A stretch of 64,000 bases of DNA from positions 155,509-219,508 of the forward strand of contig NW_019217814.1 in assembly GCF_002571385.2 (NCBI RefSeq), written 5' to 3'. The position numbers and the translations under genes are program-made. Positions 4,330 through 63,160 of the stretch are shown here, piece by piece. This DNA comes from Stylophora pistillata. Taxonomy: Eukaryota. Every line of letters starts with the position of its first letter. Position 1 is the first letter of the stretch. The notes under the pieces were generated by a model. That model saw only the letters and a list, made by a program, of their open reading frames with translations. It had not been told where the DNA came from and did no database searches.

Positions 4330-5812
4330 CTAAGCAACTGCCACTAGGGGCCTGCCTCGTCCAAAACCTACATGGAAGCCTTTGGTACCATCAGGTCCTT
4401 TGGGGAGTCTTTGAACTCCCTCCAACTGAATCATCCTGTGTCGAGGGCTGGTTGAATCAACCAACGGGCTGGATTTTTGCGAATGGCTGCTGTTCGGTGA
4501 TCCAAACTTGCGGCGCTGAGACCATGGACTGTTAGGAGCACTGTTACTTCCTTCCTTGGCAGAAACGTTGGCCAGCTTCCTGGGCAGTTCTGGACTACTC
4601 TGAGGTGATCGGCGGGCACCTAGAACCCCTTGTCGAGGGCCAATGGTGGGAGATCCAGCCCTCTCAGGTGTTGGACTTCCACCACCGTTGTACCTGCGTC
4701 GGGAAGTACTGAATGATGAGTAGGAATTATCTGTATCGGAAGAACAGGAACTAGAGAATCTATCATCTGAGTTCTTGCCCATCAACTCTTGCAAACGTTT
4801 ATTTTTCTTTCTGTTCCGGCGTTTCTTTGTAGAATCGTCGTGTTCCTCGTCTGAGTCTCGCCCGCCGTCGCTTCCCCTTTCTTTGGATTTCGTCTTGGAC
4901 TTTGATTTCTCCTTCTTAGCGCCTTGTTTGCCGAGTTCTACCACTTTCATGCCGCCTTCCTTTGAAAATTCACTACATGCACGAGCAGCTGCGGCCATCG
5001 TTTCGAAGGCTACAACCGCAGTGGTTTCTTTCTCGAGTTCCGGATGTTTGGCAAAGTAAGACTTTAAGTCAGCAGGGATTGCTTTTCCTGGGCGAATAAT
5101 GCGGATTAATTCAATCTCGCCGCATTTTGAGAAAATCTCGCTTACACCTTCCATCGTAGCGTTCTCTATTCGTGTGACCACAACAGTTCTCCCTGGATTA
5201 CGTTCGAGTAGTTCGGAAGGAAGAGGTTCATTTCTTCTCACCTTTGTCTTCTCTGAATTCAGCGAGAGCTCTTTTGACTTTTCCAAGGCTTCGGCGACCA
5301 CTCTGTAATCTTTTGTTAGCGTCTTCACTTTCTTGAACGACGTTATAAGCTTCAAGTTGACGTAACCTTCTTTGTTACGGCGGACATGCTTGAGTAAGAA
5401 GGCATCTTTAGCAAGGTTATCGTCGCTTAAGTAAAACTCGACTTGGGACACAATTTTTTCCGCCAGTTCATCGCTAGGAGGCTGAAAAGGTTCAGTTCCA
5501 TCTTTACTATCGTTGTCAGAGTGGGAATCGACGGGAGACTGCCGATATTTGCGATCGACTTCATCTTCTGAATGCGACGAACCTGCTACGTCATGATCTG
5601 AACAAGCGGTGAAACTTACTTCTTGTCCATTCAACAACAACTTAGGCGAAGCCTCGACTTTCTCTGCGTTTGTCTTTCCTAAACTTTCTTCCCTCTGAAC
5701 GTCTGCCATCTCTAATAAAATGCAAAAAGGCAGATGGCCCGTCAGGTAAATCTCACAACCCACACACCACTTCGTAAAACTGCTACTGACCCTGAAATCC
5801 TTCGGCCGCCAT
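4330..5812 (-). CDS. LARP6: La-related protein 6 (La motif + RRM + C-terminal LSA/SUZ-C motif); probable exons 5812-5791 and 5711-4330
   Basis: La motif (KIVSQVEFYLSDDNLAKDAFLLKHVRRNKEGYVNLKLITSFKKVK), RRM (FSKCGEIELIRIIRPGK) and C-terminal RLPKGPDGTKGF. An upstream aaaATGGCGG start splices in frame through a 79-nt GTCAGT..TTAG intron (5790-5712). The alternative start is the ATG at 5709. Confidence 0.92.
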
Positions 5813-5819
5813 TTTTATA

Positions 5820-37649: not shown

Positions 37650-40600
37650 ATGGATCCAGAGGAAGTGAAAGTTGTTGGTAAGGAGCGATTTAGTACAAAA
37701 TCATACTGCAGTCATGGAGAATATAACTTTACCTTTCTCGCTTTTTCTTGTTCGTAGTTTATGCGGCTCGAAATCTACAGCCCAAGAAAGGAGAAAGTAA
37801 GTCGATGTGTCTTCCACACCCAGTGTGAAGTGTTTGCGCGTGGGTCTCCATGTTGTTAACAAAAACTTCTTGTTGTAATCTTCCAGGTGTATGTAATGCA
37901 TCGGTTGTTTTTGGCATTGGCAAGCACAAATATCGAACGGAGTCCGTTCGAGACAACGATCCGACTTGGAACGAGGAAACTACGATGTGAGTGTCATGTT
38001 TCTTGTTATTTTCTTTGAAAAAATACGAATATATTGATATCATCAATTTTGTGTTCATTTCTACCAAAGAGAAAATTATACTGGAATATTCGATAAATGG
38101 TCATAGAAATGAACAAAAGGCAATAATTCTGTCTGAAATATAAGAACCATCCTTCTAAATGCGAATTAATTGTGCTTTTCTTATGTAAATCAAAAATCGA
38201 AAGTTAATGCTAAGCAAACAGCGTCATTTCATGCTTTAAACAATTTTAATCAAGGCGAAAGGAGTTACTGACTTGTTTAATTTTTTTTTAATTGAAAGTT
38301 CTTTATTTCTGTTTGGTCATTCGCCCATGCCGTACTGATGAGCGAAAACTTCGTATTTATCGGAAACTGTAATAACGATTTATGGGACTGTTTCTGTATA
38401 TATTATCTATTCTTATACTATTTACGTTAATAAGAAACATCTGCCTTTAAATTTTGGTCTTTCAAGACTAGTGAACTGTGATTACACATGTTTTTTTATC
38501 CTTTCACTAGCTCTGGAGAATTGGTATCGAGAATTCATAATTGACGCTGGATAGTTACAATCTCCAATCACTCTAAAGCTTCTAACACACTTTTACTAAG
38601 GAAGATTCAGCCAAGCTCACCGAAAAAAAAAAATACAAACAACTCAGATCGAAAGGAATCAAAACAAAAAGAAAACAGTAGAAAAAAAAATATCAACGCA
38701 ACTTATCTTAAATTTTACCAAAAAGAAGGGAACAAAAGTCACGAAACAATTAAAACTAAAGATCACGTTGATTATACGTTATGCAAATTATCTTAGTGGT
38801 AAACAGTTGAGAAGGGGGGGAGGGGTGGGGAATCGACAGGTTATTCTTGGGACTAGCTCTCGCTCATAACGCGTCTCCAAAGTATTTCAAAAATTTGCAC
38901 CAATGTTAAAAAAATAATCTCTTATTTGTTCTCGCTCTTTTTAATGAGTTCGTTTGTCCAAATTGACTCAGTTTCTTTTAAGTATATCTGTATTCACTGA
39001 CACCTAAGGTCAAAAACAACAGCCAAATTTTTTCAATACTACACCGTCTTGTTAATGTTGTTAATGATGAACTCGCAAAAGTGGGTGACTGGTTGGACGC
39101 AAACAAACTTTCTCTTAACACTAGTAAATCTAACTTTGTTATTTTCCATCCTTACCAACGCAAATTGGACTACATAGTTCACTTGAAAATTTATAATAAC
39201 GATCTTAAAAAAAGTGTATCTCTAGAACAAAAAACTTTTGTGAAATATCTAGGAATTCTGATAGATAATAACCTCTCTTGGAAGTATCATATTGATTATA
39301 TCTCATCTAAAGTTAGTAAAGGAATTGGTATAATTGCCAGGTTAAGACATCTTGTCCCATTTGCCACACTTCTTAACATCTACCGCTCCTTAATTGAACC
39401 CTATATCTCTTATGGTCTTATTGCCTGGGGACAAGCTGCTAACACTCATTTAAATAAGGTTCTCATTTTACAAAAACGTGCTCTACGACTAATGTATTTT
39501 GCGGATAGCAAAACTCATAGTGCCCCGCTATTTGTTAACTCCAGAATCTTACCAATAACTATGCTCTATTCTCATTTGGTTTCCTCTTTGATGCATGACA
39601 TTGATAATCACCGTGCCCCGTCTAATATTTCTATGCTCTTTCTCCACTCCGAGCAGGTTCATCACCATTTCACAAGATTCTCAGCAACGGCTAATCTATA
39701 CGTTAAAGCGTCTAGAACTAACCAACTTTTATTTTCTTTTGCTAGAATAGGTGTAAGATTGTGGAATAGCATCCCAAAAGAACTTCGTATTAAAAACAGA
39801 ACCCCGTTTAAGCGTGAACTTAAAAATCGCCTGTTAAAACTTTTGGAAAATGAGGAGATGAATGTTGATATACGCTGCTCAGAAATTTGTAAATATCTCT
39901 TGATAAAGTAACTCTTCGTTTAAGTCTTGTTTCAATTGTATTATATATCTTGATANCCATGATGAATAAGTCTATCTCAACGGGTATTTATCCCCATCTT
40001 TTGAAGCATGCCAAAGTAATTCCTATCTACAAATCGGGAGACGAAACTGATCCATGTAATTACCGCCCAATTTCCCTCCTTTCTGTCTTCAATCGATTAT
40101 TTGAGAAATTGATGGCTAAACGTCTTAAATCACATTGCGAAAAAAATGGTATCTTTTTTACTTCTCAATATGGATTTAGAGACAAGTGTTCAACCCAACA
40201 TGCAATTTTAGATATCTTAAGCAAAATTCAAACTAATATTGATGCAAAGTTATTCTCTTGTGGTATTTTTATTGACCTAAAAAAGGCATTTGATACGGTG
40301 GATCACTCAATCTTACTGCACAAATTATATCATTATGGAGTCAGAGGAATAATTAATAACTGGTTCTCTTCGTACTTGTTGAACAGGAACCAGTCGACTC
40401 AAATTGGTTCAACCGTATCGAATATAGAAGAGATAGTTTGTGGTGTCCCTCAAGGGTCTGTACTTGGCCCCCTTCTCTTTTTGATTTATGTTAACGACAT
40501 TTACCGTTGCTCCCAGATTTTTGAGTTTTACCTATTTGCTGACGATACTAACTTGCTTTATTCAAACAAAGATCTTAAGGATCTTGAAAAAGTTGTTAAT

Positions 40601-43600
40601 GATGAACTCGCAAAAGTGGGTGACTGGTTGGACGCAAACAAACTTTCTCTTAACACTAGTAAATCTAACTTTGTTATTTTCCATCCTTACCAACGCAAAT
40701 TGGACTACATAGTTCACTTGAAAATTTATAATAACGATCTTAAAAAAAGTGTATCTCTAGAACAAAAAACTTTTGTGAAATATCTAGGAATTCTGATAGA
40801 TAATAACCTCTCTTGGAAGTATCATATTGATTATATCTCATCTAAAGTTAGTAAAGGAATTGGTATAATTGCCAGGTTAAGACATCTTGTCCCATTTGCC
40901 ACACTTCTTAACATCTACCGCTCCTTAATTGAACCCTATATCTCTTATGGTCTTATTGCCTGGGGACAAGCTGCTAACACTCATTTAAATAAGGTTCTCA
41001 TTTTACAAAAACGTGCTCTACGACTAATGTATTTTGCGGATAGCAAAACTCATAGTGCCCCGCTATTTGTTAACTCCAGAATCTTACCAATAACTATGCT
41101 CTATTCTCATTTGGTTTCCTCTTTGATGCATGACATTGATAATCACCGTGCCCCGTCTAATATTTCTATGCTCTTTCTCCACTCCGAGCAGGTTCATCAC
41201 CATTTCACAAGATTCTCAGCAACGGCTAATCTATACGTTAAAGCGTCTAGAACTAACCAACTTTTATTTTCTTTTGCTAGAATAGGTGTAAGATTGTGGA
41301 ATAGCATCCCAAAAGAACTTCGTATTAAAAACAGAACCCCGTTTAAGCGTGAACTTAAAAATCGCCTGTTAAAACTTTTGGAAAATGAGGAGATGAATGT
41401 TGATATACGCTGCTCAGAAATTTGTAAATATCTCTTGATAAAGTAACTCTTCGTTTAAGTCTTGTTTCAATTGTATTATATATCTTGATAACTTTGCAAT
41501 TGATTATTTAATTATTCAACGGACTTAATTTTATTTTATTTTATTTAACAATTGTATTTTTATTTAATGATTATCTTTGTTTAATTGTATCGGTATGTGA
41601 TCATTAGCAGAGACAGCACTTGTTTTAGAAGGGTGGCCCGCCTAGAATAGCTTGCTAATTGCGGGTCACCTAGGACTGTGATAATATTGTATTGCTAACA
41701 AATAAATAAATTGATTGATTGAAATTGAATTGATTTCCTGAATTGTATATCTAATAGTACCATCACTCCATTTTGTTTCTTCTCTCAGAAAAGTATCCAA
41801 ACCAGCTGCACTGATATTTACAGTGATGGATCGAGAGGAGTCCCTTGGAACAGTGAGTTTACCACTTGCACAAATTCCCTCCGTGGCTCATCGTCGCCGA
41901 TGGATTCCGTTGACGACAAAAAATTCTCAAGCTATGGGCGACTTGTGCATCGACTGTTGGGTCCTTTCCTTCAAGAAGGCTGGAGAGGGAAGTAAATGGA
42001 ATGCCTTGATACCTTTAGTGGGCCGTATAGGAGGGGGCGGGCGAGATCGGTCCAAAAGAAGAGCCTCGATTGAAGCTGCTTCTATTTCTGTGAAAGGATC
42101 CAGGTCGATAGAAAATTTATACTCCAATCCTGCGCCTAAAACTGACATTAATTTGGATGCTACGAACCCATTTAAGAATCCTGACCCTGGATCGCCAAGT
42201 CCCAAACTGTCTCCTAAATCATCGTCCAGTGCCACAAATTTAGCACCCCTTGCTTTGTTCAAACCCCGTCTCGCTCCCACTTTGGGTCAGGTACTGTCCT
42301 CCAGTCGCGCTCCGGAGATTACGGGACTTTCTCCAAAAGCGGGTCTTTTGTCTGGTGGCACACGGATTACAGTGCGCGGTTGCAACCTGGGTAACTCAAA
42401 AGATGATATAGTATCTGTAACTCTCTGTGGCTGTGACCTGTACTCCACACTTGAATACCACAGTCCAGCAAAGCTTGTGGTTGTAACGAAACCTTGGAAT
42501 GGCTCCGGACCTGTTGTAGTGGAAACGAAGTCTGGTGGACGTGGTACATCGACTCTCAATTTTACATTTCAGGATAAAGCTCCAGGTGGGTAGCCATATA
42601 AGTAGCCATTGATTTGGTTGTAACTATTGTTTTTTTTTTTTTTTAACCCTTAAATATGGTATGAAGATGGGCTGTACTGCCCTTTGCAGATCAGACATTT
42701 AGATTAGAGTCGGTACACGACTCCATGGGGAAAGTTTTGTGCGAATATACTGGTATGCCTAAAACTCCTTGCCACTTATAAGGAATACACGCGCATAATA
42801 GGTGCCTGATGAAATCAGGAATTAAAACTTGCCACCAAAGAATGAATCATTGCTGATGAAATAATCAGAACAGAGACCTTAATAAGGACAGAGATGTTTT
42901 AATTCTCAGAAGTCCCAGCTTTGGCAAGCTTATGACGAACTCCCCAGGAAGTTATCAATATCAGAAGGAAACGTTTTTTTCAAGTTATAGAACTAAAGTT
43001 TTAATCGTCTGTGTCACTTTTGTCATGTTTATTCTCTCTTGTATTCCATGACCTCATTGTAGACGTTCTCTAGATTTCTTAGATTTGGCTGAATCAGCCA
43101 TTTTCTCTTTCGTGTGAATTAAAATCTTTTTCCGTCACATGAGTTCAGTTCAGACTTTCGCATCGTAAGAACAAACCGTACGAAAAATTAGCAAAAACCT
43201 TTGCGTAACTGCGCCTAATCATTTACATTTCTATAGTAAAATATGTCTTTATAACCTCAAAATTGAATTTGTGACGAAGACACTTCTTAAATAACTTCAA
43301 TTTACGCAGCTTTGTATCATTCAAAATGTCATTTGTGCGGTTAAATCACTTGTTATTATGACAACTAGCCATGACATCACACCAGAATACTTCCCATGTT
43401 ACTAAAATTATTGTGTCCAAACTTGTTAAGAATCGTAGTATACTTACCCCTAATAATTTAAGGACTAAAACAGGTCAAACATAAATGATATTGTCAATTG
43501 TCGGTTTTCCCTTTGGAAGGAAAAGCCTTTTTGGAAAATTTTAAAATGCCTTCAGTGTTGGACTGATTAATTTTTTTCGGTTTTTACACCATGATCAACA

Positions 43601-44559: not shown

Positions 44560-47500
44560 TCAAAATAAGGCGTCTTTAATCGGTGACAACTTTACCATGA
44601 CCACCCCTGTGGGATTTACTTTGGCACTAACGAAATTGGTAAACTGACCCAAGTCTTTACCAGCAAACAAGTCTCTGGCAGAGGCTGTCTTCGATGTCAA
44701 TCCAATCTGTAGCACCAAAAGAAAGAAAGGTGTAGTTGTTTGTAACTCTGATATGTTGTTAATTACTGGCTAAACTTTTATGTAAAAGCTCTACAGATGT
44801 GAAAGTGTTAAAACTATAGAATTGTTTCTTGTTCCAAGTGCAATCAACTCTTAAACAGCTCTTTTCCCTTCCTCCCTTAAATTCTTCCCGTTACGCAATC
44901 CAGACGAACATCTTAGAGGGTTTCAGAGGAGTAGCAAATATTGTATAGGGTGGTTGGCCTTTAACGTGCATGACTCAGGAACACAGCTCCATAAAAAAAT
45001 TCCTTTGATAACAAAGTACTGTCAATTCCCACATACCAATTCAAAATCAGCTTTGATTTCCTGTGCTGAGTCTCGGTTGCGATTAAACAGCACGGCAGCC
45101 ACACTGCCATTAAACAAAGCACGTGACCAAACTTCTACATCTTTTTCAGCGAACTGTTGAGGTAAGGACAACATAACTTAAGAGGGGAATACAGGGTTGA
45201 TTATGGAAAGAGTTGGGTCGTTGACCATAGAAATTCCTCATGAAGACCTAGTCCATCACCATCACAGTAGCTATGGTCTTCCCCGTGCTGTTAGCACGGA
45301 GCTAAAACAATGACTAAATGTCTTATTAACGCATGGTATCAAATCTCAGCGACGCTGTTTTGAGAATCATCGAGCAATTTGGCCACTGATGTGGATAGCG
45401 TTTGGTGTGAGGATGGAATTTATGCCTTTTGTCACCGTATGAATTTTTAAATTAGAGAGACTTAGCAATGCGTTTACGTGAAACGTGAACAGCAGAAGAG
45501 ACCACGTGAACTTGTTTTTCCCGCCATTTTTTCACGATTGCCGGTTGCGCTTTGCAGTTTCTGCGTGAAAGTAACCTGTTTCACTTTTGCCGTGCACGTA
45601 AAAATTTTCTTCACTTTTTTTTCTCACAGAGTAGAAGTTAATTGCCGGAAAAAGGGCGCCAAAACTATTCCTTGTAAGTCACACAAGGGCGCCTTCAAGT
45701 CCACTATGACGTGAGCTCCCGCGAAGCTAAAACAGCAAAGTTCGCAACATTTTACGTTAAACTTGAAAGGGCAAGCTGACGTTTGCCGTTTCACGTAAAC
45801 GCGGTACCAAATCTCTCTTTTAACAAACAGATTTCATGTTTCCATGCGTCTGTTCAGGACTAAATCACAGATGACGTCAAAATGTAGTAAGAACAAAAAA
45901 GGTGGCACACGAGGTGCATCCCAGTGTGCCACAGACGCTCTGAGCACATTGTGACGTCATCTGTGATCTGTTACTGCCGGAACAGACCTCCGGCAGTATA
46001 GAATTTATTGGTTTTATATGATAAAAGAGAAAATGTTGGTGAAGGTGATGTCATCTATGTGTCTCCTCCAGTAGTTCATTGGAACAATCAAAATGCAAGT
46101 GTACTTTAGCCTATCATGTGACATAAAAAAGTATACACACCACTCTTCTCCCCATTTTTCCCAGCTTGTCTTGATCAACAGCAATTACTTCTCTGATGGT
46201 AAAAAGCACAAGAGTAAAATAGTGATATTTACGACCTTAAAGCTAACAAGTAACTCAAACAGCTGAGTAGCCCGGCCAAAAGGACTTAGTTCTTCAGGAT
46301 TTTCCTCACTTGTAGGATCTCACCCCAACTCATCTGTTGAACAATGCATGTTAAACGATGCGATGATTACCTGTTTAGAAGAATGTCTTTGGCCTCCTTT
46401 GAGATGTTCCTTAAATCATTTGACATGATAAGTGGCTGTGCATTAAAATAAAGACATGTGATCAACCAGTATTTAATAAATAGGTATATAGAGACATAAG
46501 GGTGTAATGTAATACGAGGTAGTGTTTTATGGTTTGGTGACATCAGAAAAAAATTATCACTTCATTCCTCTATGGTGTACAATTTATGGCGCACAATCTG
46601 AGAGTGCATTCTCCCTTACGGCCTACAAAGAAAACAACTTTTGTAAAGAAATTCCTTTAAAAGATCAGACATTTCCAAAGCTGACCATCTTCGTTTTCTC
46701 CTTCGGAAATCGTCTATGTTCCACAGCAAAAGAAAATCCAAGGGCTGAAAATCCCGAGGATCGGGGCACTCCCTGGTTGGCATTCCCGACCGTTTATTAC
46801 GGTAAATGTTGAGAGCAGATTGCTTGTCCAAGGCGTAAAAATGCCTGACATACGCAAGGATGTCAAAAGATTCAATCCTGGCTTCATCTGCTTAAACGTA
46901 TCACTTGTGCGATATACAGTGACGGGGAAGAAGGCTAAACTCACTGCAGCTAGGATTGACCAAAGTGCAAACTGTGCTTTAGATTGTTCGTAGTTCAGCC
47001 CAAAATTACCAATGACAAGCTGTACAGGTAAATCAAAACAAAACTATTAAAAATGTATGAATATGAGTGATTTCCCGAATACCATGTAATTTGTTGTATT
47101 GAGAACCAAAGTTGTTACAGCGGCCAATCAGAACAAAGAACAAATCTAATTACCCTCAACCGAGGGAAACCCATAATTACGCATGTTAATGAACAAGTCG
47201 TGATTGAGGTTAGTGTTGTGTTGTCTCTGGTTGGTTGAGGATGTAGCGCGAATTCTCTGAATCAATCAAAAAGTAAAGTAAAGCTAAGCCAATGAGATTC
47301 TAATTTACGTTGAACAATTGGGTGAACTATCAAGTGAAAGCTACTCTAAGTAAGGTGTATGTCTAATATATTAATGACTTGGTAGTGATCATTCGTTACA
47401 AGCCGGCTGGTTTAGCATTTTACCATGTCTGGGTCATTCCAGTGCCCAGGTCCCGCTGCTGGAACGAACGTGTCTTGGTTCTCCGCAAAATGATCCAAAA

Positions 47501-50500
47501 TTCCTAGAACACTATTCCACGAGTCCTGTTAAGGAAAATCGAAAAAACGGTGTAGGAGTTGTCAATTCCTAGTAATATGGTCCACACACATTGCACCACA
47601 CTAAAAAAAATTAGTGCTAAGTTAAATAGGAACCAGTTTCCACAGGAAAGAATGAGAAGATAAGTGCCGAATAGCTTAAACGAAAAAAATGAAGAATTAA
47701 TAAATCACTGAGAATAAACGGATGGATGAATAGACTTTCCAACCTGTACATCTTGGTAATTTCTCCAGGTGTTGCAGTTTCTAGCAATAGCAGCATAGTC
47801 AGGCTAAAATAGAAGTATTTTTAATAAATAAATAATAAATAAATAATAATTTAGCAATGGACATTCCACTGGGTGGCTCTCCTTGTCCACTGTTTCCAGA
47901 TCGAATTGGAATTTGGAATGTTGGTTTTTGTGGAGGGAGGAAAACCGGAGGACCTGGAGAAAAACCCTCAGAGCAAGGATGAGAACCAACAACAAACTCA
48001 ACCCACATGGGACGCCAGGTCCGGGAATCGAACCGGGGCCACAGTGGTGGGAGGCAAGTGCTCTCACCACTGCGCCATCCCTGCTCCCGGTAGGTCAAGG
48101 AATGCTGACTTTGGACGGTGCTGTAACGTTGTTTTATAAATCCCTCTGTAATTACTAATTCTCAACCTTTACTTGTTAATGAACTATCACCCCAACACTC
48201 AACAGAAAATTGTAGGCAGCAAAAACAGATTCTTCTATTGTGCAAATTACCAAAGGCTTTCCTACGCATAACATAAAGTTTGGTGGGGAGGGTATAAGGA
48301 GGAGAGTGGGAGATTGGAAAGAGGAGGGAATGATGTACCACAATCCTAAGAAAGGCTGGAAGAGGCTCTGCTAGTATGAGCCATTTTGGGATTTTACACA
48401 ATTACTGATGACTTATTATTTTTCTAACCAGACAGCTATAGGTGAGCAAAGTTGAGATTCTTCATAAAATGAAATGAAATAACTGTCTTGTAGCAATTTT
48501 CTCTTAAAATAGTGTTTTAGTCATACGTCCAGTGAGTATAAAAGATTTGTTAATCTAAGCACATAACAATGTAAATGGTAAATATGATTCTTGTCTCTGT
48601 GTGAATCGAACCTTTATTCCAATTTTGGATTGGTAATCAGGCCATTCACAGCTCAGTAATATTGGGCGTCCTGTTGCATTTAGAGCTTGAGTAAATTTTG
48701 GGTAGCCAACATCAAACAGAGCAGGGTCTGCATAACAACCATCCACTTTGAGATAATCCACTTCCCAACTTGCAAATGTCTGAAAAGTATGATGATAACT
48801 GTGAGAGGAAAGGATCCATGATCTTAAAGTTAAAACACAGCCTGCAGTTACCCTCCTAACAATGAGGCAAGGCTGTGGTCTAGCAGCATCCAGTGACCCC
48901 TGGCTCCTTACTTTTGCTCTTGGGTGACTCAGGAATTTTAGTTTTTTCATATAAAGCATATGCTGGGCACCCTGGATTTCACAGATTCAGAGCATTGGGT
49001 TCCATTCAATTTTCCTTAGAGTACAGCCTTGACGAGGGAACGCAGTAATGCAAAGGTTAAGGATTAAAGTGCTGTTGAAGTTTAAAAATTGGCTAATAAT
49101 TTCGAGTTACATATTAAATTTGTGATTTTACATTAAATAGTCTGCATGGATTTGAACTGATTGAGACTTTACCAGGCCTCCCATTCCACTTCATGGTCTA
49201 GCATCAAAGAGATTTTAATTATGTGTATGTTTTCAAGCAGTAAATGGATGAGAACAAAGCAAAACTATCACCCAATTGACATCATTTGACACATGATTAT
49301 TAGGGCTAAACTTATAAGCAATTTACTGAATACACAGTAGACAGACCAATTCAAGGCATTGATTAGGCTTTGGGTTAGAAGGGCTAACTTTCTGTCACAC
49401 TGCCTATAGTTTCAACAACCCAAGGGGAAGTCATCATCAGAGTAAGTAATTTCCTTGTATCTAGTGATGACCTCCACTTGGTTAGTAGACATTCGCCAGT
49501 ATCACTGATGGGGCTCCTTCTCAGGAGTACCTAATTACTAGGATGATGATTCCATATGATCAAAAGTGAAGTTATATTTATCAACAGCTTACTTGTGCAT
49601 CTTGTTCAATGTGATCAATACTTCCAGGGTAACCAGCACATGTTAAGATGCCATAATCTGTTGGAGATCACACAAACAAAGAAAAGGGTTGTTTTTTTTT
49701 TAATACACGATGATATATTTACAAATATCTTTCTAATGGTTAATACTTCTGCAGAAATATTTTCAGAAAAGAAAAAAAAGCATTTACACTGCAATGCAAG
49801 CAGCTCAGCTCACCTCTAATATAAAAAATGTTGCCTTTTCTGCTGGCAACAGAAGTAAATTATTAAATCTGCTTTTAACAAATCACTTATAGAAGTAACT
49901 TCAGAGGTGACTGATTACATCTAAAAGGATTATGTATTCTGACTTTAGGGCTTAGAATGTCAATAACTAGATACTTGCCAGCATACATTCCAAGTTTCAG
50001 TCTTTTGCTATGTAACTATATAGAATTAGAAAAGAAACAAATACCAATGGTTAACACTTCAATAGAGTAGTATAAAATAAACAATATCATGAATTCATTC
50101 TAAAATGGCTAAAAAAGAGGTAAAGTCTGGAGAAAGAGAACCATTCATGATAAAAGAAGAATAGACATTCCTGTGTAGTCAGTTGGTCAGCCACAATCAT
50201 GTGAAAAAGTGGAGGATTGCAACTGCAGGAGAGCTTTGCACTTGGGAATGCTTCCAATAACTACAAGTATGGATGCATTATGATAATCTTACATATTCTG
50301 CCAAAGCTTTCATCCCACTTGGAAATCTTGTACTGTTAGGCTGAAGATTTCCAGAAGAATCACGCTCTTTGTTTGACCAACAGTCCTGAAATATAATATT
50401 AAGTTAAATCCAACAAGGATATCATCATCATCCCCACAGTTATCAATGTCACTGTCAATGTCACCATCATCATCATTATCATCATCACAAGTACATTAAC

Positions 50501-52132
50501 AAGAGATTAAGGCACTTACATCAATGCTAACATAATCATATCCAGCATCTCGATAACCATCTTCAGCAAGACGATCAGCCATCTGCTTGATCAGATGTTC
50601 ACTGAAACAGACAATTAAGACAGACAATTAAGTATATACACATGGAGCCCACACAAGCGGTGTGTCTGGCCATTTGTTCGAAATGTAAAGAAATGTATGG
50701 AAGAATATTGAAGAGTCGTTATATCATAATCTTATATCGAGAAATGTCAATGTTAAGGCTCAAAATAAATGTAAACCTACCTCACTTGCCGTGTATTGTC
50801 GTTTCTGTGGTTCTAAATGGCGAATTTGAGCGATTTGGTAGATTTTGCGCTGACTGTTACTCTACTGTATAAGGAGACAAATCTCCTTGACTGTTACTCT
50901 ACTGTATAAGAAGACAAGACTCTTCAATATTCTCCCATACTTTTCTTTATATTTCAAACAAACGACCAGACACGCCCCTTGCACGGGTCCCCTGTGGTAC
51001 ATATAACAATTTCAGCTCCTGGTCAAATTTAAAATGAAAGTTGCCTCTCGAATTCACTTTGAAATATTTGTGACTTTTCCACTTTAAATTTTCCTTTTGA
51101 CTTATGTCTGTGTTGTGAATGATGAAGATCACAGGGAAGGAAAGGACTTACATGTTCTGATTAGGATATTTAGACAACACAGGAAGACTTTGGGTATGAA
51201 ATTCCAAAACTTGTAATGGCCATTATTTTCAAGCTAGCTTTTTAAATAAACTGATTCTCTAAGGTAATACACAATACAGACTACGTGTGTCACGGGTACC
51301 CCAACCACGATAAACACCCCTTTCCCTACCCAGCCCCTCCCCCCCCCAGTCCTCGGCTTTGATCAAAGGTAGCAAAGGGGACGGGGGTGCTGATCCCATT
51401 ACACGCACAAATTTTAGAAACATTCAGGTGTCATGTGCACTTTAGATAGTATTTCATGCGTCACGAATGAAAAATAGAATATTTTAATCTCACCTGATCT
51501 TGTCTATTGCTAAAAAAAAACTCACGTCATGTATTAATTTTCGCTCAATCACGCGCACGTACAAACCATGGCCTTTGCTACATCCTGATCCTTACTAATA
51601 ATTTTTACAAAGACCTTTGGTGCTTTTACGTAAATTATTTTAAAACGATATGTATCAAACAACAGTACTTCTATACACCCAGCTCTTACTGATCAACACA
51701 AAGCTTTTGATCCGAGAGTGTGTGATGCACTTCCGTAATTCGGTAACGAGCACTGCCTTTTAGCTATCTTCGATCTCCCAGCTTCTATCAACGCACTTAC
51801 CTTATGCAGTTTTCTGGATCCTTGTTGCAATCGATGTTGCATCTAAATCTTTCCCAATCCATCCATCCCACTATTTAAATGGAGCAAACCCGAACGATGC
51901 GTCAGTTTCGTGAAAAATTATCTCAGGAGAAAAGCACATAATTTTAAATCGGTGTCCTACGCAAATCAGCTGAACACTGGTCAACTTTTTCAACTTATGA
52001 ATTGCACTGAGTAACCTTACTTGGTGGTGTAAGTGCTAAGCCATTATTCAATCCAACAACTGCATACTTGTTAAAGAAGGGTACTAAAATAACCAGAGTT
52101 ACGGCCGCAAAAGCCCAGTTACTATCCGCCAT
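44560..52132 (-). CDS. GH27 glycosidase, alpha-galactosidase-like (SCEWP motif), signal peptide; 14 exons: 52132-52021, 51870-51801, 50601-50520, 50385-50293, 50015-49979, 49657-49593, 48779-48612, 47803-47744, 47525-47424, 47019-46945, 46435-46371, 46192-46141, 45153-45037, 44706-44560
   Basis: [26 protein letters not shown], nucleophile motif YLKVDGC, WRNYQDV (acid/base Asp), [18 protein letters not shown]. Exon phases are consistent; one GC-AG intron is required. Confidence 0.9.
45454..45818. mobile_element. MITE-like element
   Basis: Imperfect TIRs AGAGAGACTTAGCAATGCGTTTACGTGAAAC / GTTTCACGTAAACGCGGTACCAAATCTCTCT. Confidence 0.65.
47822..48088 (-). mobile_element. Full-length tRNA-derived SINE in a GH27 intron
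   Basis: Minus strand GGGAGCAGGGATGGCGCAGTGGTGAGAGCAC (A box), GGTTCGATTCC (B box), (TTTA)n tail. Confidence 0.85.
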
Positions 52133-52434
52133 TTTCAGTTCAGGCTCAAGAAATCACGAGATCACTCGTTGCACAGGCATCCCACCCTAGAGGGAAAACT
52201 CCCGCTCTCCGCGCGAGGGAACAGCTTGTGTGTTCCAAGCATTCGATGGAGAATTAACCAGTCTGTCAGACACTCAAAACGTGAGTTCTTTATAATAATC
52301 GTTCCTTTTTCGTTACAGAACAGCACAGGTTTTTCCCACTCGTGAGGAGACATTTCAAACAAACGTTTCTCACTATTTTATTGATTGCAACAAAAAAATT
52401 AATTAGTAAACACAGTCAAGAGCTCCTGATTATG

Positions 52435-52690
52435 TCAACAACTGGTCAAGCAGCAACTCTTCTTATGTTTTTCTTTTCCTTTTCCTTTTCTCTTTTTGAC
52501 TATATTTTTTTCCTCTTCACAGATCGGTGTCAGCTTCATCATGACCACTCCACTGGGGTTCACTCTGGCTATGAATGTTTCATTATACATTCCTAGCTGC
52601 TGATGAGAGAATAGATCACGTGCGCAGGCACTTTTTGTTGAAATTCCAACCTAAGTTCGAATAGAAACAGTTAGTTTAATAAGTATGATG

Positions 52691-52735
<45 letters not shown>

Positions 52736-55700
52736 CTGGGTGGGGGAGGGGGGGGAAGGAACGAAGCCACCCTTCTCCGAGGAAGATATCCTGTATCCTG
52801 ATACCCCACGAGGAAATCGTTTTGTATTAAGTCGGAAAACATTAGACGTTTTAGAGGGGGAGATTTACTCCAAGACAATAGATCTAAACTAAGTTTTGAA
52901 ATAAGTATTCGCCTTGATCAAAAGGGTGGGAACGTCTGAAGAGAACTTCCTCCAGAACTTCTGGAGGAAGTTCTCTTCTGAGAAGGGTATCATGTACCCT
53001 CAGGATGTTTTAGTAAAAGAGAAGGCCGCACATCACGCACGCTCAGAAAAAATCCTGGAAAGGATGATCGATGTTAGATTTGGTACTTCCTGTCAAAAAG
53101 CTTTAGTGAGAGAATTGAATTCAGATGCTTACGTCTGAGAACGGGGCTTCCACATCGGACGGTAGATCTGATCTCAGGCTAAGCAGCACCACAGCTACGC
53201 TTCCGCAGTCTGACAAGGGGCGCGCCCATACCTCTGTAAATGTTTCTTTGTTCTACAGAAAAGAAACTTGATTTAAGCCATTATGTTAATACTAAACTAA
53301 GAGAAGAATGGGAATTTTGAGCTCGGTCATCGTTTCCGATATTGCTACCAGACCTTTGCAGTATGTAGGACTAACAGTTGTCATGTATATAAACCTCATG
53401 AATAGCCTGGTTTACCATCGATTTCACGAGAGTGAACCGAACTGACGGTGAAATCGGAGGGTCCTGAAATCTGAGTCCTCCTGAGCGCTTTTTTCAAATA
53501 GTTATCGTCTGTCTTATTTCTAATGAATTGTCCGAATGAATTATAGCAGCTTAGCATTTCAAGCAATCCTGATGAAAGAATATTAATAACAATTACCTAA
53601 AAAAAGACGCGGGTATGTATTGCGGTCATGGATGCTTGAAACCACCCCTCCAGATGTAGGGGGTTTTTTTGCTCAAAATTACTAATGCTGCTGAATTTCG
53701 CTGTACCTTAATCACTCGCTTTCCTTGTTTTCCGAGCTTGTCTTGGTTTACGGCGATTATTTCTCTGTAAAATATATTTTAATTTCCGGCTAAGTTATTT
53801 TCAGGAGTGAAAAAAAATTGGGTTTCAGTTGGAATGTAAATAATCCCTTTTACAGTTGTGGGCTTGGTGGCCAAGCCTTTGAACAGGAATGAGGCTAAGA
53901 GTGACCCTGTCGTGATAGAGACCTGTATCTAGTTAGCATGATAACAAAGAAATTTGCATTTGAAAAGCAGCAACATCTCTATCATAACAAGGTCACCCTT
54001 AGCCTCACTCCTGTTCAAAGGCTTGGCCACCAAGCCCACAACTGTAAAAGGGACTGTTGTTTCTCATGAAATCATTGGTGGTTTCATGGCGCTGTCTGCA
54101 TTTAGGACTCTTTCGATTCTTCCTTAATTAAAATGACACAGAGACTTGATTTGTAAAAAACGCGATGGAAGTTGAAAGGAAATGCTGACCTCAGCAGTGC
54201 TCGTGACAGCGCACGTGACTTACGTGTTCAGAAGAATTTCTCTGGATCTGGCATCAATGTCCCGTAAATCGTTTGACATGAGCAAAGGCTGATGACGAAA
54301 ATCATGCAAAGAATAATTTCAAAAGCATGAATTGCTGTCAAAGAGACTCAGTCAAGAAACTTCTTCAAGGATTGCAACTGGTTGCCCTTAGCCATTAATA
54401 AGTCATTACTGCTATAACTACTTATTCCCGAGAGAGAGAAATAGAAAGAGAGAAATAATCCCGTTTTAAAACGAACTCGTTCTCGAGCGAAAAAAAGGGA
54501 AATTCATAATTACTGAAGAGCCAATCTATAAACCCTTCTAAGATAGAGAAACACGACTTGAAGAACTTATTTTTATTTGACCGTATTTGCAATAAAAATT
54601 AAATCGGTTGCAATGGAATTTTTTGACCATTGTTTTTCAATCTAAGGACTGAAATCAAGGGCTTTCTTGGGTCACTAGGAAATACTTACAGATGCCAATA
54701 TGGCCCAAAGAGCAAACTGTAGCTTGGACTGTTCATGACTCAGACCAAAGTTTCCAATTATTAGCTGAGAGAGAAAATATGGGTCAAAAAAGAAATGAGA
54801 TAATTCCTACTTATCCTTTTGGTTCATTTGAGGCTCTCCCTATGATTTTAATTAATTAAATAAAAGATAATAAGTTCATGTTTTCTCTTGTCAGAGTATT
54901 TGGTAAGGGGCGGGGTTAGCAGAATTTACATTTGGATCACGGTCCATCGATGATAAAAAGAGCAGTGTAACATTTACATGAGGAACGTGAATAAGAATTG
55001 TTTTAATATAGTTAAATAAAGAAACTTTTGACAATAATGGGTAAATATGAACCAGTTCTGGGTCGAGGAAAAGCGCTGTTTGCAGTTTTCCCACCGAGGT
55101 TATGAGGTTGCAAAATAAGGATGTCAATCTGATGACGTCCTGAATTCAAAAGGCTTTTTGTCACGTGGACACGTAAAACTCGAGCTCTGTACTACCTACG
55201 ACTAAACGTCAAGGAACGTCCAGTTCAAAGCCTGGAGAAAGGAATCATGGTATCAAGAGGATACAGCGAGTGTGCATGCTTTTCAAAGAGAGTCCACTTA
55301 CCATATCAGGGTCGTTCCAGTGTCCGCTACCTGCCACTGGTATCATGTCATCCTGATTGTCTCCATACCAACTTAAAATGTTCACCAAGCTCTGGAATGA
55401 ATCCTGCAAATTAAAAGCCAAGGTTTTTGTGAATGCCCTACGAATCAGTATGTATGATTTGAAACGCTGGGATTAAACTTCAGCCTACAGTGTTTTAAGC
55501 CAAAATATTTCATATTCGAGGATATATGCTGCAATAGAGGAGGAGTCCAACACGTCCTGTATTCCTTTTCTCCCAAATCGCAATGAAATGTGAAGCGTTG
55601 CGACAAAAAGCGTGATTATATTATTCTTAGGTTTACCTGTATATCACCATAATTTCTCCATAAATTGCAATATTTCGCGATCTTCTTGTAGTTGGGCTGC

Positions 55701-58700
55701 AAATAAATTTACAAAAAACTTATTTCATCTTTGATACTACGCCAAGACCTAGCAACTGAAAAAATATTATTACATTGGTTGTGATGTAGCATTAGTAACG
55801 AATCACGAAATGAAAGTAATCTGTTCATGTTTTCCTTCAGCAGCATTGCTAAAATATACACAAATTAATCGAATGAAGCCTTACACTGCTGTAAAAAGTA
55901 AAATGTTTTAAAATTCCGAGCTTTCTCCGATCAACGGCATCATCAGGGAACTCTTATGATGCCGTTGATCGGCGAAAGTTCGGGTTTTTAAAACATTTTA
56001 CTTTTTACAGCAGTGTAAGGCTTCATTCGATTAATTTGAATATACATGAAAAGAAAGTTGTCATGAACCTTTTCGATTTTGTTTCCCCTCTTTCAGCTTT
56101 TGCTACCGCAAAAATTTTAGCCCCTAAGCACGCTTCTCTACAAGAACAAAATCAAAACGAAAACGAACTTATTTTCTTGGATAAGCGCAAACCACTTTTC
56201 AAAAGAAAAAAAACCTTGCATCCTGAGAAACAATGTCATACCCACTTTTATGCCCGTGAAGACTTGGTACGCAGGCCAACTGCATGAAAACACTATGGGG
56301 CGGCCTGTCTTATTCAGTGCCTTGGCAAACTTTGGGTATCCTTTGTCCATCTTTTTGGGGTTTGCATAACAACCATCCAGCTTGAGGTAATCCACTCCCC
56401 AATCTGCAAATGTCTGAGAAGAGAAACCAGCTTAGAGTGACACTAAAAAAATATTTGCCCACTGTGAACGAGAAAGAAAAAGAGTCAGTTTTTACGGAGT
56501 GCGATTGTTTCAACTGGTGTACAAACCTGTGCATCTTTCTTTATATGATGGATGCTCCCTGGGTACCCTGCGCATGTCTTGGTTCCATAATCTGAAATTG
56601 TTCAAAGAAATCAGAAGGTTACATGCAGACTGATCTGACGACGAGACTGGAGAAAACATGAACTCAAGGTTTCAAAATAAGAAGTTTATAAAGGACCAAG
56701 GTACCTGCATAGATTCCCAACTTAAGACCCCTTGCATGAACCTGGAAATGTCATCAGTGCAAATATGCTTTAGCTTCAAGGAGGAAAGACCCTTCCAGAA
56801 GATAACTGCAGTAAATATATCATGACATAAGAAACAACAGAGATAAGTAAGATGACTTGAAACATAATGCTCTACGTACGTAATCTGCTAGCTTTTTAAT
56901 TCCGTTTGGGAAACGTTTTGGATCCGCCCGCAGCCGACCATCTTTTGTTCGACTCATATCGGTCCAGCAATCCTGAAATTGAAGGAAAACAGAGAAATGG
57001 AAATTAAGGCAATGAAGAACTGAGAACGAAATCTGAAATACCAAGCGCTTGGTTGAAAAGATATAGAATTAAGAGCGAAAGCTGAAGTATGATCAGGAAA
57101 GAACTCAAGATATAATTTTCACGCTTGTCTTCGGCTTGGAATCAAAAACGTCTTAAGACAAAGATAATCTGATATCTAGATATGGAGCAGTAAAATTAGA
57201 AGCGTTAGAGTGAAATAATTGGATGATATAACTAGCATTTTCTATCAATTTCACTTTGACAAGAGTTGTAAAGCAAATGGAGAAAATGTTCAAACTTTGA
57301 TTGTTTCTAAAGATTTGTACATTCTACAGGTGGAAGAACAATAGGACACGTAGTCCCCCACAAGGTTCATCCACCTAAACCCAACCCACCCATCCCACCC
57401 CAGGTAAGGACATCCATCACACAGTAATCTCGTATGTGGGAAATTACCGTCTCCTACCCCTCTTGCCAGGAGACGGGACCTCCATTTATTCGTCCCTATC
57501 CGAGAAGACTAGAATATCTAACCATTTCTTGATGTTATAGAAAGGAAGCATATTCTTCTAAATTATTTTAAGGCCTTGAGTGTTGGTCCGGCCGGGGCTT
57601 GAACCCTCGACCTCCCGCACAACAGTTCAGCGCTCTATCCATTGAGCTAACTGGGAGGCGGTTTAAAAATGTTCGTTTGAAAAGAAAATGTTCGTTTGAA
57701 ATGAAAATGTTCGTTTGAAATGAAAATGGTAGTATTTGTTATTTAGCTGGAGAATTCCTCACATCAATGCAGATATACTTGTAGCCAACAGTGCTATATC
57801 CACCAAAATACATTGCATCTGCCATTTCCATGTAAAGTCTTTCACTGCAGTNNNNNNNNNNNNNNNNNNNNNNNNNNNNNNNNNNNNNNNNNNNNNNNNN
57901 NNNNNNNNNNNNNNNNNNNNNNNNNNNNNNNNNNNNNNNNNNNNNNNNNNNNNNNNNNNNNNNNNNNNNNNNNNNNNNNNNNNNNNNNNNATCAATCAAG
58001 CTATCAAACAATGAATCAGTCAATATAGTTATGGTGTTAATAAGTAAAAACTATGGTGCATTGTGAGTAGTGAATATAACCTATCATGTTCAATAGTCTT
58101 GATTTATTAGATCACAGCATCTTGAGTCCCTCCATTTTTACCTGATGCAGTTTCTAGGATCCTTCTCGCAATCTGTAACACAGCGAAATCTCTCCCACGA
58201 CATCCATCCCACTATAACAAACGCACACAAAAGTTCTTAGAATTAATTTACTCTTGTCAAGAGAAGATTGACAAAAGATAGTCCTCGCGTGACTTTCAAT
58301 TACGGACAACAGCAACACAGATGACCAAAAAAGCATTATCAAACATGATTGCTCCGTGCAAATTCACCGTGTCTTATTCCGCGTGTGGGAATTTTTGCAT
58401 AGACTCAGAAACGTGCTTTTAATTCAAATTAGCTGAGATGGAAGTGTATACCCTAAGAAGCTATTTCCATAGTATACAGAGCAACTATCAATGCTATTCA
58501 GAATTTAAGCTTTTGCACTGAAATTGCTATGTAGCTGTAATATTCTTGAATTTGGAGAGCTATCAAAGACGCCTGTTGAATAATGTCCTTCCCTTTCGGA
58601 AATTTAGGAAAAATTTCTTTGAAGCTACGTTTTGTTCTGTTGTGATCTGATATGCTAACTAGTGTAATTTCAAAACCAGAGAACTTATCTTGTTAGATTC

Positions 58701-59563
58701 AGTGTTAGCCGAATGATACTAAGACTTTTTAATCTCGTACCCAGGGAATTTGCCCTTCAAAATGGGGAGGGGCCTTGGGGACAAGGTTGATGTTGCTATG
58801 TGATGACAAATTGAACCTTCGTTCGAATTAATGTTCTTGAGCTTATCTGAAAATGTTTGTACAATCTATCTTATTTCTAGATCATAGAAATCATGAATTC
58901 TTCAAACTTGCACTAGCATTTCTCTCTTTAGTGAATACCAGTCATATTCGCTTCAAAATGGTTTATTTAATCGGCTTTCATTTTCATTCATTTTCTCGCT
59001 GAAAAGATTTTGCTCACCCATATAAATCATCTTTTTTCCAATTCTTAAGGATAAACTTACAACAACTGACAGGCGTGGCTCAAGGTTGTGCATTTACTGG
59101 GATCAAATTTTCATTTCGTTGTGAAGGAACCACCAAAAAATTATTTTTCCTGTCATCAATATTTACTGATCTCTTGACGGGTGTAACAGGTACCAAGCAG
59201 CGACGAAGAACGCATTGTCACCAAGGAAATGGTAATAAATTATGAAACTAAACGATAAAGGGAGAATCGAATTTTACAAAAAGAGAAAAACAACGGTCAT
59301 ATAGGCCGGAAAACGGTGCTAAGATGCAATAATTTTACCAAACCATTGCCAGGATGCGAGCAAAATTGTTCAAGACCAGTTCTGAAATCAGCCTCGAGAA
59401 AAATGGAGTTTGTTGTTTATAATTTTTGTAGAATTTAGTTCCTCTAAAACAAAACTAACTACTTACTTGGTGGAGTTACTGCGAGGCCATTATCCAGCGA
59501 GCAAACTTGTTGTAAAATCGTCGAAAACAGGCATAAAAACACTGCTTCGCCCAAAGCAGACAT
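52435..59563 (-). CDS. NAGA: GH27 alpha-N-acetylgalactosaminidase-like (SCSWPAY motif), signal peptide, 14 exons (first 59563-59467, last 52650-52435)
   Basis: [73 protein letters not shown]. Intron positions closely parallel the neighbouring paralog. An N-gap falls within intron 2. Confidence 0.88.
52693..52733. repeat. (TG)n microsatellite
   Basis: Direct reading. Confidence 0.95.
53844..54053. mobile_element. Near-perfect foldback MITE in a NAGA-like intron
   Basis: About 75-bp inverted arms TCCCTTTTACAGTTGTGGGCTTGGTGGCCAAGCCTTTGAACAGG... and their reverse complement. Confidence 0.8.
55861..56038. mobile_element. Foldback element of a second Penelope-like family with a central minimal hammerhead motif
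   Basis: About 85-bp inverted arms; minus strand 55950-55914 reads TTCC-CTGATGA-T-GCCG-TTGAT-CGGA-GAAAG-CTC-GGAA. Confidence 0.7.
57468..57661 (-). mobile_element. tRNA-derived SINE
   Basis: The minus strand begins CCGCCTCCCAGTTAGCTCAATGGATAGAGCG, with B-box GGTTCAAGCC; shared with window position 1-192. Confidence 0.8.
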
Positions 59564-62452: not shown

Positions 62453-63160
62453 CTACGTGAAGGTCATGGCTCGCTCTCGTCCTCGTACTTTAACCAGATT
62501 CCTGTCCGTAAATCCGTCTTTAATATGACTGATACTCGCGCCTTTTTCGATAAGAAAGCGCGCGCAGTCAAATTCTCCTTCGCAAACCGCAGCATCCAGC
62601 GGCGAGGACCCTTCTTTGTCGCGAACCTCCAGCTGCGCACCTTTGGTCACGAGATACTGAAGACATTCAAGGCTCCCTGTGCTAGCAGCTCGATGTAAGG
62701 CATACGACCCATCAACTCCTGGAGCATTAAGATCGACTTTCGTGCCTTCCACTACATTTTTTAAGGTATCAACATCATTGTACGTGGCAGCCCACTGGAG
62801 TACTAGTTGTGGATCCAACGATAAGCTTTGTTTTCTTCTCCTCGCTGATTTATCATCTGGCTTCAGTTTACCATCATCTTTTTGCGTTTCTATTCTTTCT
62901 TCGCTGATTCTTCTCAAGACACAGTTTCTTGCCGGAAATTTTAACGCAGTCTTTGTGGCAGAGCACATGTCTATTCCAAGATGATCTAGATTGGTGTGTG
63001 AGTTCTTGTTTTCATCTGTTGACTGCCAAGATTGCACGCAAATATCTGGTATCTCCTTGTCTTTAGGGCCCTCACGGGTTGGTGGGGATAATGTTTTGGC
63101 TTCTAGAGTTTCATTTCCTGTAAGCAGATTTGTTTTGGTGAAAGTTTTGGTTGTGCACAT
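62453..63160 (-). CDS. Ankyrin-repeat protein (about 3 repeats), loosely PPP1R27/MYPT-like, with a disordered N-terminus
   Basis: 235-aa ORF with DGSYALHRAASTGSLECLQYLVTKGA and EGSSPLDAAVCEGEFDCARFLIEKGA ankyrin consensus. Confidence 0.8.
   Translation of the reverse strand: MCTTKTFTKTNLLTGNETLEAKTLSPPTREGPKDKEIPDICVQSWQSTDENKNSHTNLDHLGIDMCSATKTALKFPARNCVLRRISEERIETQKDDGKLKPDDKSARRRKQSLSLDPQLVLQWAATYNDVDTLKNVVEGTKVDLNAPGVDGSYALHRAASTGSLECLQYLVTKGAQLEVRDKEGSSPLDAAVCEGEFDCARFLIEKGASISHIKDGFTDRNLVKVRGRERAMTFT

Follow-up and report, generated by a model that had tools for sequence, protein, structure and literature searches.

Whether an invertebrate can carry alpha-galactosidase as well as alpha-N-acetylgalactosaminidase (alpha-NAGAL) as separate neighbouring genes, and whether such a pair would go back to the duplication that separated human GLA, the Fabry-disease enzyme, from human NAGA, the Schindler-disease enzyme, is the question raised by a locus of the coral Stylophora pistillata. 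In a 64,000-nucleotide stretch of contig NW_019217814.1 (positions 155,509 to 219,508; hereafter the window), two genes of glycoside hydrolase family 27 (GH27), which we call A and B, form a head-to-tail tandem on the minus strand with only 302 bp between them, the same intron phases and open frames. An earlier note, made from the letters alone, had described two adjacent 14-exon paralogues, one with the loop SCEWPDY and the other with SCSWPAY, and had considered them either a trace of an ancient GLA/NAGA duplication or a re-evolution of alpha-galactosidase specificity. Exon models with open frames bore out the two paralogues, both motifs were found at the places given (48653-48633 and 56287-56267), and the outer limits named by that reader coincided exactly with the gene A ATG and the gene B stop codon.

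In our view the A/B pair is real and old, and its most plausible reading is a cnidarian duplication in which the GLA-type Glu was gained convergently. A and B are intact tandem GH27 paralogues. Going by sequence, it appears reasonably probable that A is a predicted alpha-NAGAL and B likely an alpha-galactosidase, and that the Ser-to-Glu switch likely took place within cnidarians independently of GLA. The two proteins shared 234 of 409 aligned residues (57%), and fourfold-degenerate sites matched in 38 of 92 cases. A recent lineage-specific or false assembly duplication was rejected on the basis of this identity, of orthologues in anemones and of introns that were not colinear beyond short matches. 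A single fused two-domain enzyme, as modelled in Pocillopora damicornis and Oculina, was also rejected for the S. pistillata genome, because A has a stop codon and B has its own ATG and a hydrophobic leader.

Four read runs were checked over 47400-50610 for gene B. In the bin with the Glu codon (48588-48695), mean depth was 27.5 in RNA run X24, with strand-specific exon coverage, and exon 7 was spanned by a contig of the DNA run X18 (depth 164). Neither run listed an alternative letter in this exon, so the GAA and GAT codons hold; run X22 had low depth, and exon 7 was uncovered in run X3. A sequencing error at the Glu codon, which the earlier note had named as a way for its idea to fail, was rejected, since the X24 and X18 reads agree and other corals carry Glu too. 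Nine of the 13 gene B introns were seen as read joints (six of six within the checked interval, including a GC-AG intron, and three elsewhere), and loose read ends matching the next exon were found at two others; gene B is expressed as spliced RNA. No gene A intron joints occurred among the read joints listed, and gene A coverage was thin (0.6-2.2 in the repeat-free X21 bins having depth, near zero in X24); its model is based on open frames and on orthologues at 75-89% identity. Coverage of A was near zero in X24 and low in X21, and over the 5' exons of B the two runs showed the opposite pattern, all at low depth; relative expression was not relied on.

Conservation of the pair and predicted specificity

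As the earlier note had proposed, synteny was followed in other anthozoans: further stony corals had the pair as well, and sea anemones had a Glu-type orthologue. The named protein nearest to the pair was P. damicornis pdam_00011398, with 93-94% identity to A and B over the columns used for the trees. Fused models from P. damicornis and Oculina patagonica had a Ser/Ala half followed by a Glu/Asp half, the same order as in S. pistillata, and are likely gene-predictor fusions caused by the short gap between the genes. Outside these models, adjacency was inferred from accessions and scaffold lengths, not from DNA. In Acropora muricata, A. millepora and A. cervicornis, the A and B orthologues are on a single scaffold with consecutive or near-consecutive accessions; in A. 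palmata their accessions are 119 apart on one chromosome. Close locus tags were found in Desmophyllum, whose B model has no loop and was placed in the clade by the tree. The accession of the Actinia Glu/Ser gene came directly before that of a Ser/Ala gene. For both Nematostella and Exaiptasia, the scaffolds given for the B and A orthologues were of identical length.

Every loop read among the coral and anemone B orthologues retained Glu, except that of fragment P0013, which has Lys. At the second site, three anemones of the B clade had Ser, whereas Pocillopora, Porites, Orbicella and Oculina had Asp and the two genera Acropora and Montipora had Leu; Leu is most plausibly derived, and the Acroporidae orthologues have the exact human Glu/Leu pair. 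In the Acropora B orthologues P0064 and P0479-P0485, the Cys directly before Glu is replaced by Tyr, which removes a disulfide of the loop that starfish GalNAcase II has lost too. An annotated isoform of Montipora foliosa (P0487) consists of a B-type body with an A-type last exon and tail, and is either an annotation chimera or real cross-gene splicing. Scleractinian A orthologues (P0082, P0084, P0103, P0467) share with gene A a tail rich in Lys and Glu, 28 to about 230 aa long and with a Cys cluster at its end, which might anchor or oligomerise the enzyme.

The pockets were aligned with human GLA (P0368) and rodent NAGA; the human residue numbers agreed with the retrieved GLA sequence, and the list of shared pocket residues follows PMC5445309. 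Both A and B kept the equivalents of W47, D92, D93, Y134, C142, K168, D170, C172, Y207, R227 and D231 (11/11), as well as four disulfide pairs and the F273 equivalent. Gene A agreed with alpha-NAGAL at 13 of 13 pocket positions, including Ser193/Ala196. Gene B combined the 11 shared residues with GLA-type Glu198, and its second site was Asp201, not Leu; the bulky hydrophobic Leu at position 206 was found in the Acropora and Montipora orthologues only. The human loop motifs quoted in the earlier note (SCEWPLY and SCSWPAY) matched PDB chains. Its statement that swapping the two residues interconverts specificity agreed with secondary accounts (PMC5645117 and PMC7918333, with one table row of PMC4580623): Glu and Leu block larger C-2 substituents, and double swaps exchange specificity. 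Catalytic roles are assigned to GLA D170 and D231 in PMC7918333.

Exon 7 of both genes matched the Pfam family PF16499 (Melibiase_2; E 3.7e-22 for A and 2.1e-18 for B), and the full-length orthologues P0002 and P0097 matched PF16499, PF17450 and PF17801. The structural model of P0002, a B orthologue 81% identical to B, had a predicted local distance difference test score of 92.6 and TM-scores of 0.89-0.90 to 1KTB, 3H53 and 3HG4, and in this model the predicted GH27 fold, a (beta/alpha)8 barrel with a beta-sandwich, was found. The N-termini of A and B appeared hydrophobic by eye, and 2 and 4 N-glycosylation sequons were counted in the two proteins.

GH27 enzymes are retaining, double-displacement exo-glycosidases, and both A and B would act in this way, probably in lysosomes or digestive vacuoles. 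Judging from its residues, A would remove terminal N-acetylgalactosamine in alpha linkage (alpha-GalNAc), with some alpha-Gal side activity as in the NAGA-type enzymes of PMC548690 and PMC5445309, and B would remove terminal alpha-Gal, with Glu198 crowding the N-acetyl pocket. An ancestral Ser-type gene would have multiplied before the sea anemone/stony coral split, and one copy would have gained Glu, so that the pocket for the 2-N-acetyl group became crowded and terminal alpha-galactose was favoured. The second site would then have varied: anemones have Ser, the majority of the stony corals sampled have Asp, and Acroporidae have Leu.

A rather unlikely reading is that B arose independently but that Glu198/Asp201 does not confer GLA-like specificity, in which case B would be a dual NAGAL/GAL enzyme or prefer some other galactoside, either 2-substituted or charged (galactosamine, for example), or a marine substrate such as floridoside. 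Leu, half of the human switch, is absent from B, anemones have a small Ser there, and the B loop has two acidic residues. Furthermore, symbionts produce floridoside (PMC5559212), and starfish loop variants alter specificity in other ways (PMC5445309). Against this reading, Glu is conserved in the B orthologues as described above, apart from the single Lys fragment, the change of the second site to Leu in Acroporidae fits selection to exclude GalNAc, and the clade occurs in anemones regardless of symbiosis. An algal-galactoside role for B, suggested in the earlier note, was weakened, as Nematostella and Actinia have Glu-type orthologues and a Desmophyllum model lacking the loop falls in their clade; Nematostella and Desmophyllum are not known to have algal symbionts. 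PMC5559212 describes floridoside as an alpha-galactoside made by symbiotic algae and two coral genomes as having no synthase homologue, and floridoside is a fair candidate substrate for B. Since the B clade appears older than, and not confined to, alga-hosting corals, general alpha-galactoside turnover or digestion is the simpler role.

Among known enzymes, human NAGA (PDB 3H53; chicken 1KTB) has the same 13 pocket residues as gene A, was the best PDB match for exon 7 of both genes, and had a TM-score of 0.89 with the B-orthologue model. In contrast to human NAGA, A is one of several hexacorallian paralogues and not a one-to-one orthologue, has 14 exons and ends in a Lys-rich tail. Human GLA (PDB 1R46) shares with B the Glu at 203, the 11 common pocket residues, the four disulfide pairs and the Phe at dimer position 273, whereas B has Asp for Leu206, lacks the 378-382 cysteines, is overall nearer to NAGA-like invertebrate enzymes and stands apart from GLA in the best trees. 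GANA-1 of C. elegans has a Ser/Ala loop like gene A, and its dual activity (NAGAL greater than GAL) is supported in PMC548690; it is a single gene, unlike the coral pair. In starfish (PMC5445309), two GH27 forms of one marine invertebrate differ in specificity through the recognition loop, as A and B would, but the variant with the loop SGSAPAY loses alpha-Gal activity, the opposite direction to B, and has no Glu. The engineered GLA E203S/L206A and NAGA S188E/A191L (PDB 3LX9 series; PMC5645117) differ at the same two positions as A and B, and B would correspond to a natural half-way or alternative state (Glu/Asp).

The earlier note had also regarded Asp at the second site as atypical, which proved wrong for the family. 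We read the loops of the best 120 matches to the coral query, a sample ranked by coral likeness and biased accordingly; 119 had a readable loop and one of these had two, giving 120 motifs. They comprised Ser/Ala (39), Ser/Asp (34), Glu/Leu (11), Ser/Val (11), Ser/Phe (10), Glu/Asp (4), Glu/Ser (3), Glu/Phe (3), Glu/Trp (2), Gln/Gly (2) and Ser/Tyr (1). Asp at the second site thus accounted for 38 of the 120 and was present in sponges, echinoderms, hemichordates, crustaceans and an amoebozoan, and the combination of Glu with Asp was found only in stony corals within this sample. Gastropod models P0109, P0120 and P0126 had tandem duplicated internal segments, and P0109 had both a Glu/Leu and a Gln/Gly loop; these segments look like mutually exclusive exons, and specificity might be switched by splicing. 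Echinoderm GH27 loci (P0091-P0134; Antedon, Asterias, Amphiura) had many annotated isoforms with a shared Ser/Asp loop and differing C-terminal parts.

Origin of the Glu-type gene

The GH27 phylogeny suggested in the earlier note was carried out with rows chosen from about 450 retrieved proteins, from which long, partial, synthetic and redundant ones were dropped by choice. The overview tree (FastTree, 144 rows) kept the specificity columns; a 58-row tree (quick C20 posterior mean site frequency, PMSF) and 42-row trees were made without these two columns. The 42-row searches were short, with 101 iterations for the support tree, and supports are given as SH-like approximate likelihood ratio/ultrafast bootstrap values. 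The best trees placed gene B inside Cnidaria, not with vertebrate GLA. First, in all three trees the coral and anemone Glu-type proteins formed one clade (98.8/100 with 42 rows) outside the bilaterian group holding GLA and NAGA (97.8/95 with 42 rows, only 80 in the 144-row tree). Second, the Glu-type proteins of spiders, hemichordates and beetles each paired with the Ser-type of their own group in all three trees (99.6/100, 98.9/100 and 100/100, respectively, with 42 rows). Third, all cnidarian rows came together (94.2/87), and the best 42-row trees had the B clade beside hexacorallian Ser-type paralogues.

Nine alternatives, and then six more, were compared with the best tree by approximately unbiased (AU) tests under LG+G4 and C20-PMSF (p values in this order). 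A single clade of all Glu-type proteins was rejected (4e-5 / 2e-75), and so were the grouping of all bilaterian Glu-type proteins, the grouping of B with GLA and the gastropod row, and its reciprocal form (p at most 0.003 under both models). Five cross-lineage pairings of Glu-type proteins were all rejected (p at most 0.015), for example GLA with hemichordate Glu (0.002 / 0.001), GLA with spider Glu (0.015 / 0.010) and cnidarian with spider Glu (below 1e-9 in both). The unconstrained tree, anthozoan monophyly and GLA+NAGA+amphioxus were not rejected. A and B as each other's closest paralogues were not favoured (0.10 / 0.02). Of the two origins offered in the earlier note, re-evolution was therefore favoured; A and B as orthologues of NAGA and GLA, respectively, were rejected in the form of B with GLA and anthozoan Ser-type with NAGA (0.003 / 6e-8), and only B with GLA alone remained borderline.

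Several points weigh against an independent cnidarian switch to alpha-galactosidase. The B clade with vertebrate GLA alone gave AU p values of 0.047-0.053 (LG+G4) and 0.076 (PMSF), and GLA is a long branch. The hexacorallian Glu+Ser node had a support of 58.5/55, deep hexacorallian paralogue nodes were weak, and the 58-row tree left the B clade unplaced. Each constrained tree was the product of one to six short searches, and the favoured tree guided the PMSF profile, so that AU p values are perhaps too small and rejections inflated. GLA candidates from fish, lamprey, tunicate, placozoan and annelid were not purposely included. The Ser codons of A and of two other paralogues in the genome are AGT/AGC, three changes from GAA, and a Ser-to-Glu switch would not be a one-step event. 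Finally, since both residues were exchanged in the human enzymes, a pocket with Glu and either Asp or Ser may still accept GalNAc, and the literature search found no activity data on Glu/Asp GH27 enzymes.

The borderline AU values would also suit a reading that we regard as improbable, in which B is truly orthologous to vertebrate GLA, the duplication into GLA and NAGA preceded the cnidarian-bilaterian split, the tandem was kept in corals and GLA was lost in most invertebrates. The tandem is old, and Acroporidae have Glu/Leu as in human GLA. However, the bilaterian clade uniting GLA and NAGA and the rejection of the reciprocal versions are contrary to it, the cnidarian Glu copies are no closer to GLA than the Ser copies (49% vs 50% identity), and many losses would be needed, with separate Glu origins in spiders, hemichordates and beetles in any case. 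Very improbable is a single ancient Glu-type gene kept in many lineages, with gene conversion by a Ser-type neighbour homogenising all but the specificity loop and mimicking convergence: the coral paralogues are tandem, three base changes separate the AGY Ser codons from Glu, and gastropod models duplicate loop-bearing segments in one gene, but Glu/Ser pairs within lineages are only 51-66% identical, which together with the fourfold-site matches of A and B argues against recent conversion, and 30-column sliding windows round the loop showed no excess likeness among Glu-type copies (mean 0.00), which argues against an old Glu loop kept in this way.

Returning to the independent gain of Glu, position 203 was the sole column in which all five contrasted lineages shared a residue against their Ser-type sisters. 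Parsimony on the 58-row tree gave six changes between Glu and non-Glu, and five when GLA is united with the gastropod row, a grouping with a support of 54/55 that may reflect long-branch attraction. The same switch likely occurred in vertebrates, spiders, hemichordates and beetles, and probably in gastropods. We give about even chances to a recurrent move in which a NAGA-like gene was duplicated separately in at least five lineages (corals with anemones, vertebrates, spiders, hemichordates and beetles) and an alpha-galactosidase arose in each by the same Ser-to-Glu change, several reaching Glu/Leu, with corals keeping a Glu/Ser, Glu/Asp and Glu/Leu series and some gastropods perhaps using alternative loop exons.

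The usual picture, as given in the accessible part of PMC548690, is one dual-activity invertebrate enzyme from a single ancestral gene and a single GAL/NAGA split in higher metazoans, near vertebrates, with a possible separate insect duplication; that part reports no Glu-type invertebrate paralogues. A small schistosome GH27 tree in PMC8791529 has no cnidarians among the sequences listed in the part seen. Our literature search found no paper on cnidarian GH27 paralogues or on a repeated origin of the Glu switch; most subscription journals and supplements lay outside it, and an earlier mention is possible. If true, at least five origins would offer a clear natural example of enzyme evolution repeating itself, at residues whose structures are solved and which mutagenesis has already exchanged, and many invertebrate 'NAGA-like' genes would probably be alpha-galactosidases. 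The coral and anemone series Ser/Ala, Glu/Ser, Glu/Asp and Glu/Leu would test which human residue sets specificity. The locus represents known chemistry in a known family, and its value is evolutionary, at a medically famous residue pair, rather than a new mechanism.

Gene models, related genes and neighbouring sequences

All introns of A and B had an AG acceptor, and the donor was GT in 25 of 26 and GC in one. A stretch of N lies within gene A intron 2 and touches no exon.

Table 1. Coordinates in the window of the GH27 genes A and B and of their main features
Feature	Position	Strand	Remarks
Gene A, GH27 of predicted alpha-NAGAL type (Ser193/Ala196)	52435..59563	-	14 exons, 435 aa, open frame, GT-AG introns
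Gene A exons	59563-59467, 58211-58142, 57844-57763, 56972-56880, 56741-56705, 56591-56527, 56413-56246, 55696-55637, 55403-55302, 54764-54690, 54288-54224, 53764-53707, 53252-53133, 52650-52435	-	
Gene A recognition loop SCSWPAY	56267..56287	-	Ser codon AGT 56281-56279; Ala codon GCG 56272-56270
Gene A catalytic nucleophile Asp161	56375..56377	-	alignment; coordinate from exon model
Gene A acid/base Asp222	55643..55645	-	alignment; coordinate from exon model
Gene A C-terminal Lys-rich tail, Cys cluster at end	52438..52521	-	no tail in gene B
Gap, gene A stop to gene B ATG	52133..52434	.	302 bp
Gene B, GH27 with GLA-type Glu198 and Asp201	44560..52132	-	14 exons, 414 aa; splicing in reads
Gene B exons	52132-52021, 51870-51801, 50601-50520, 50385-50293, 50015-49979, 49657-49593, 48779-48612, 47803-47744, 47525-47424, 47019-46945, 46435-46371, 46192-46141, 45153-45037, 44706-44560	-	
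Gene B recognition loop SCEWPDY	48633..48653	-	Glu codon GAA 48647-48645; Asp codon GAT 48638-48636
Gene B catalytic nucleophile Asp166 (aligns with human GLA D170)	48741..48743	-	alignment; coordinate from exon model
Gene B acid/base Asp227 (human GLA D231)	47750..47752	-	alignment; coordinate from exon model
Gene B intron 5, GC-AG	49658..49978	-	seen joined in 17 X24 reads and 2 X22 reads

A search of the genome with gene B exon 7 gave four matches (four of four candidates scored). Two of them form a second tandem pair on contig C468 (59701-52199 and 48669-43149; loci L005-L007), both of Ser/Ala type with the same 14-exon layout, so A and B make up one half of a family of four genes; the four paralogues were 59-69% identical pairwise in the comparison including the C468 pair. 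In this assembly, exon 10 of one C468 gene holds an in-frame stop, and the other gene has an extra base at exon 11; close orthologues are intact. A transcript-derived protein 98.6% identical to the second C468 gene reads through the place of the extra base, and this points to an error in the assembly or to a null allele. One paralogue clade (C468:52199-52342 and orthologues P0072, P0074, P0075 and P0499-P0512) ends in HYEL, LDEL or QDEL; such ends resemble an endoplasmic reticulum retrieval signal and hint at a GH27 enzyme resident there.

High-copy dispersed repeats lie inside introns of A and B (about 57224-57774, 47857-48407 and 53918-54468) and were abundant on both strands in DNA and RNA runs. 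Upstream of gene A, two similar single-exon ankyrin-repeat open reading frames (ORFs) are on opposite strands (window 62456-63010, minus; L011:2001-2513, plus). Other ORFs in the window were a La-domain/SUZ-C gene (4333-5814, minus), a DUF4528 ORF (22738-23226, plus), a retroelement reverse-transcriptase ORF (39959-41443, plus) and a frame with a TIG-domain match (41742-42590, plus).

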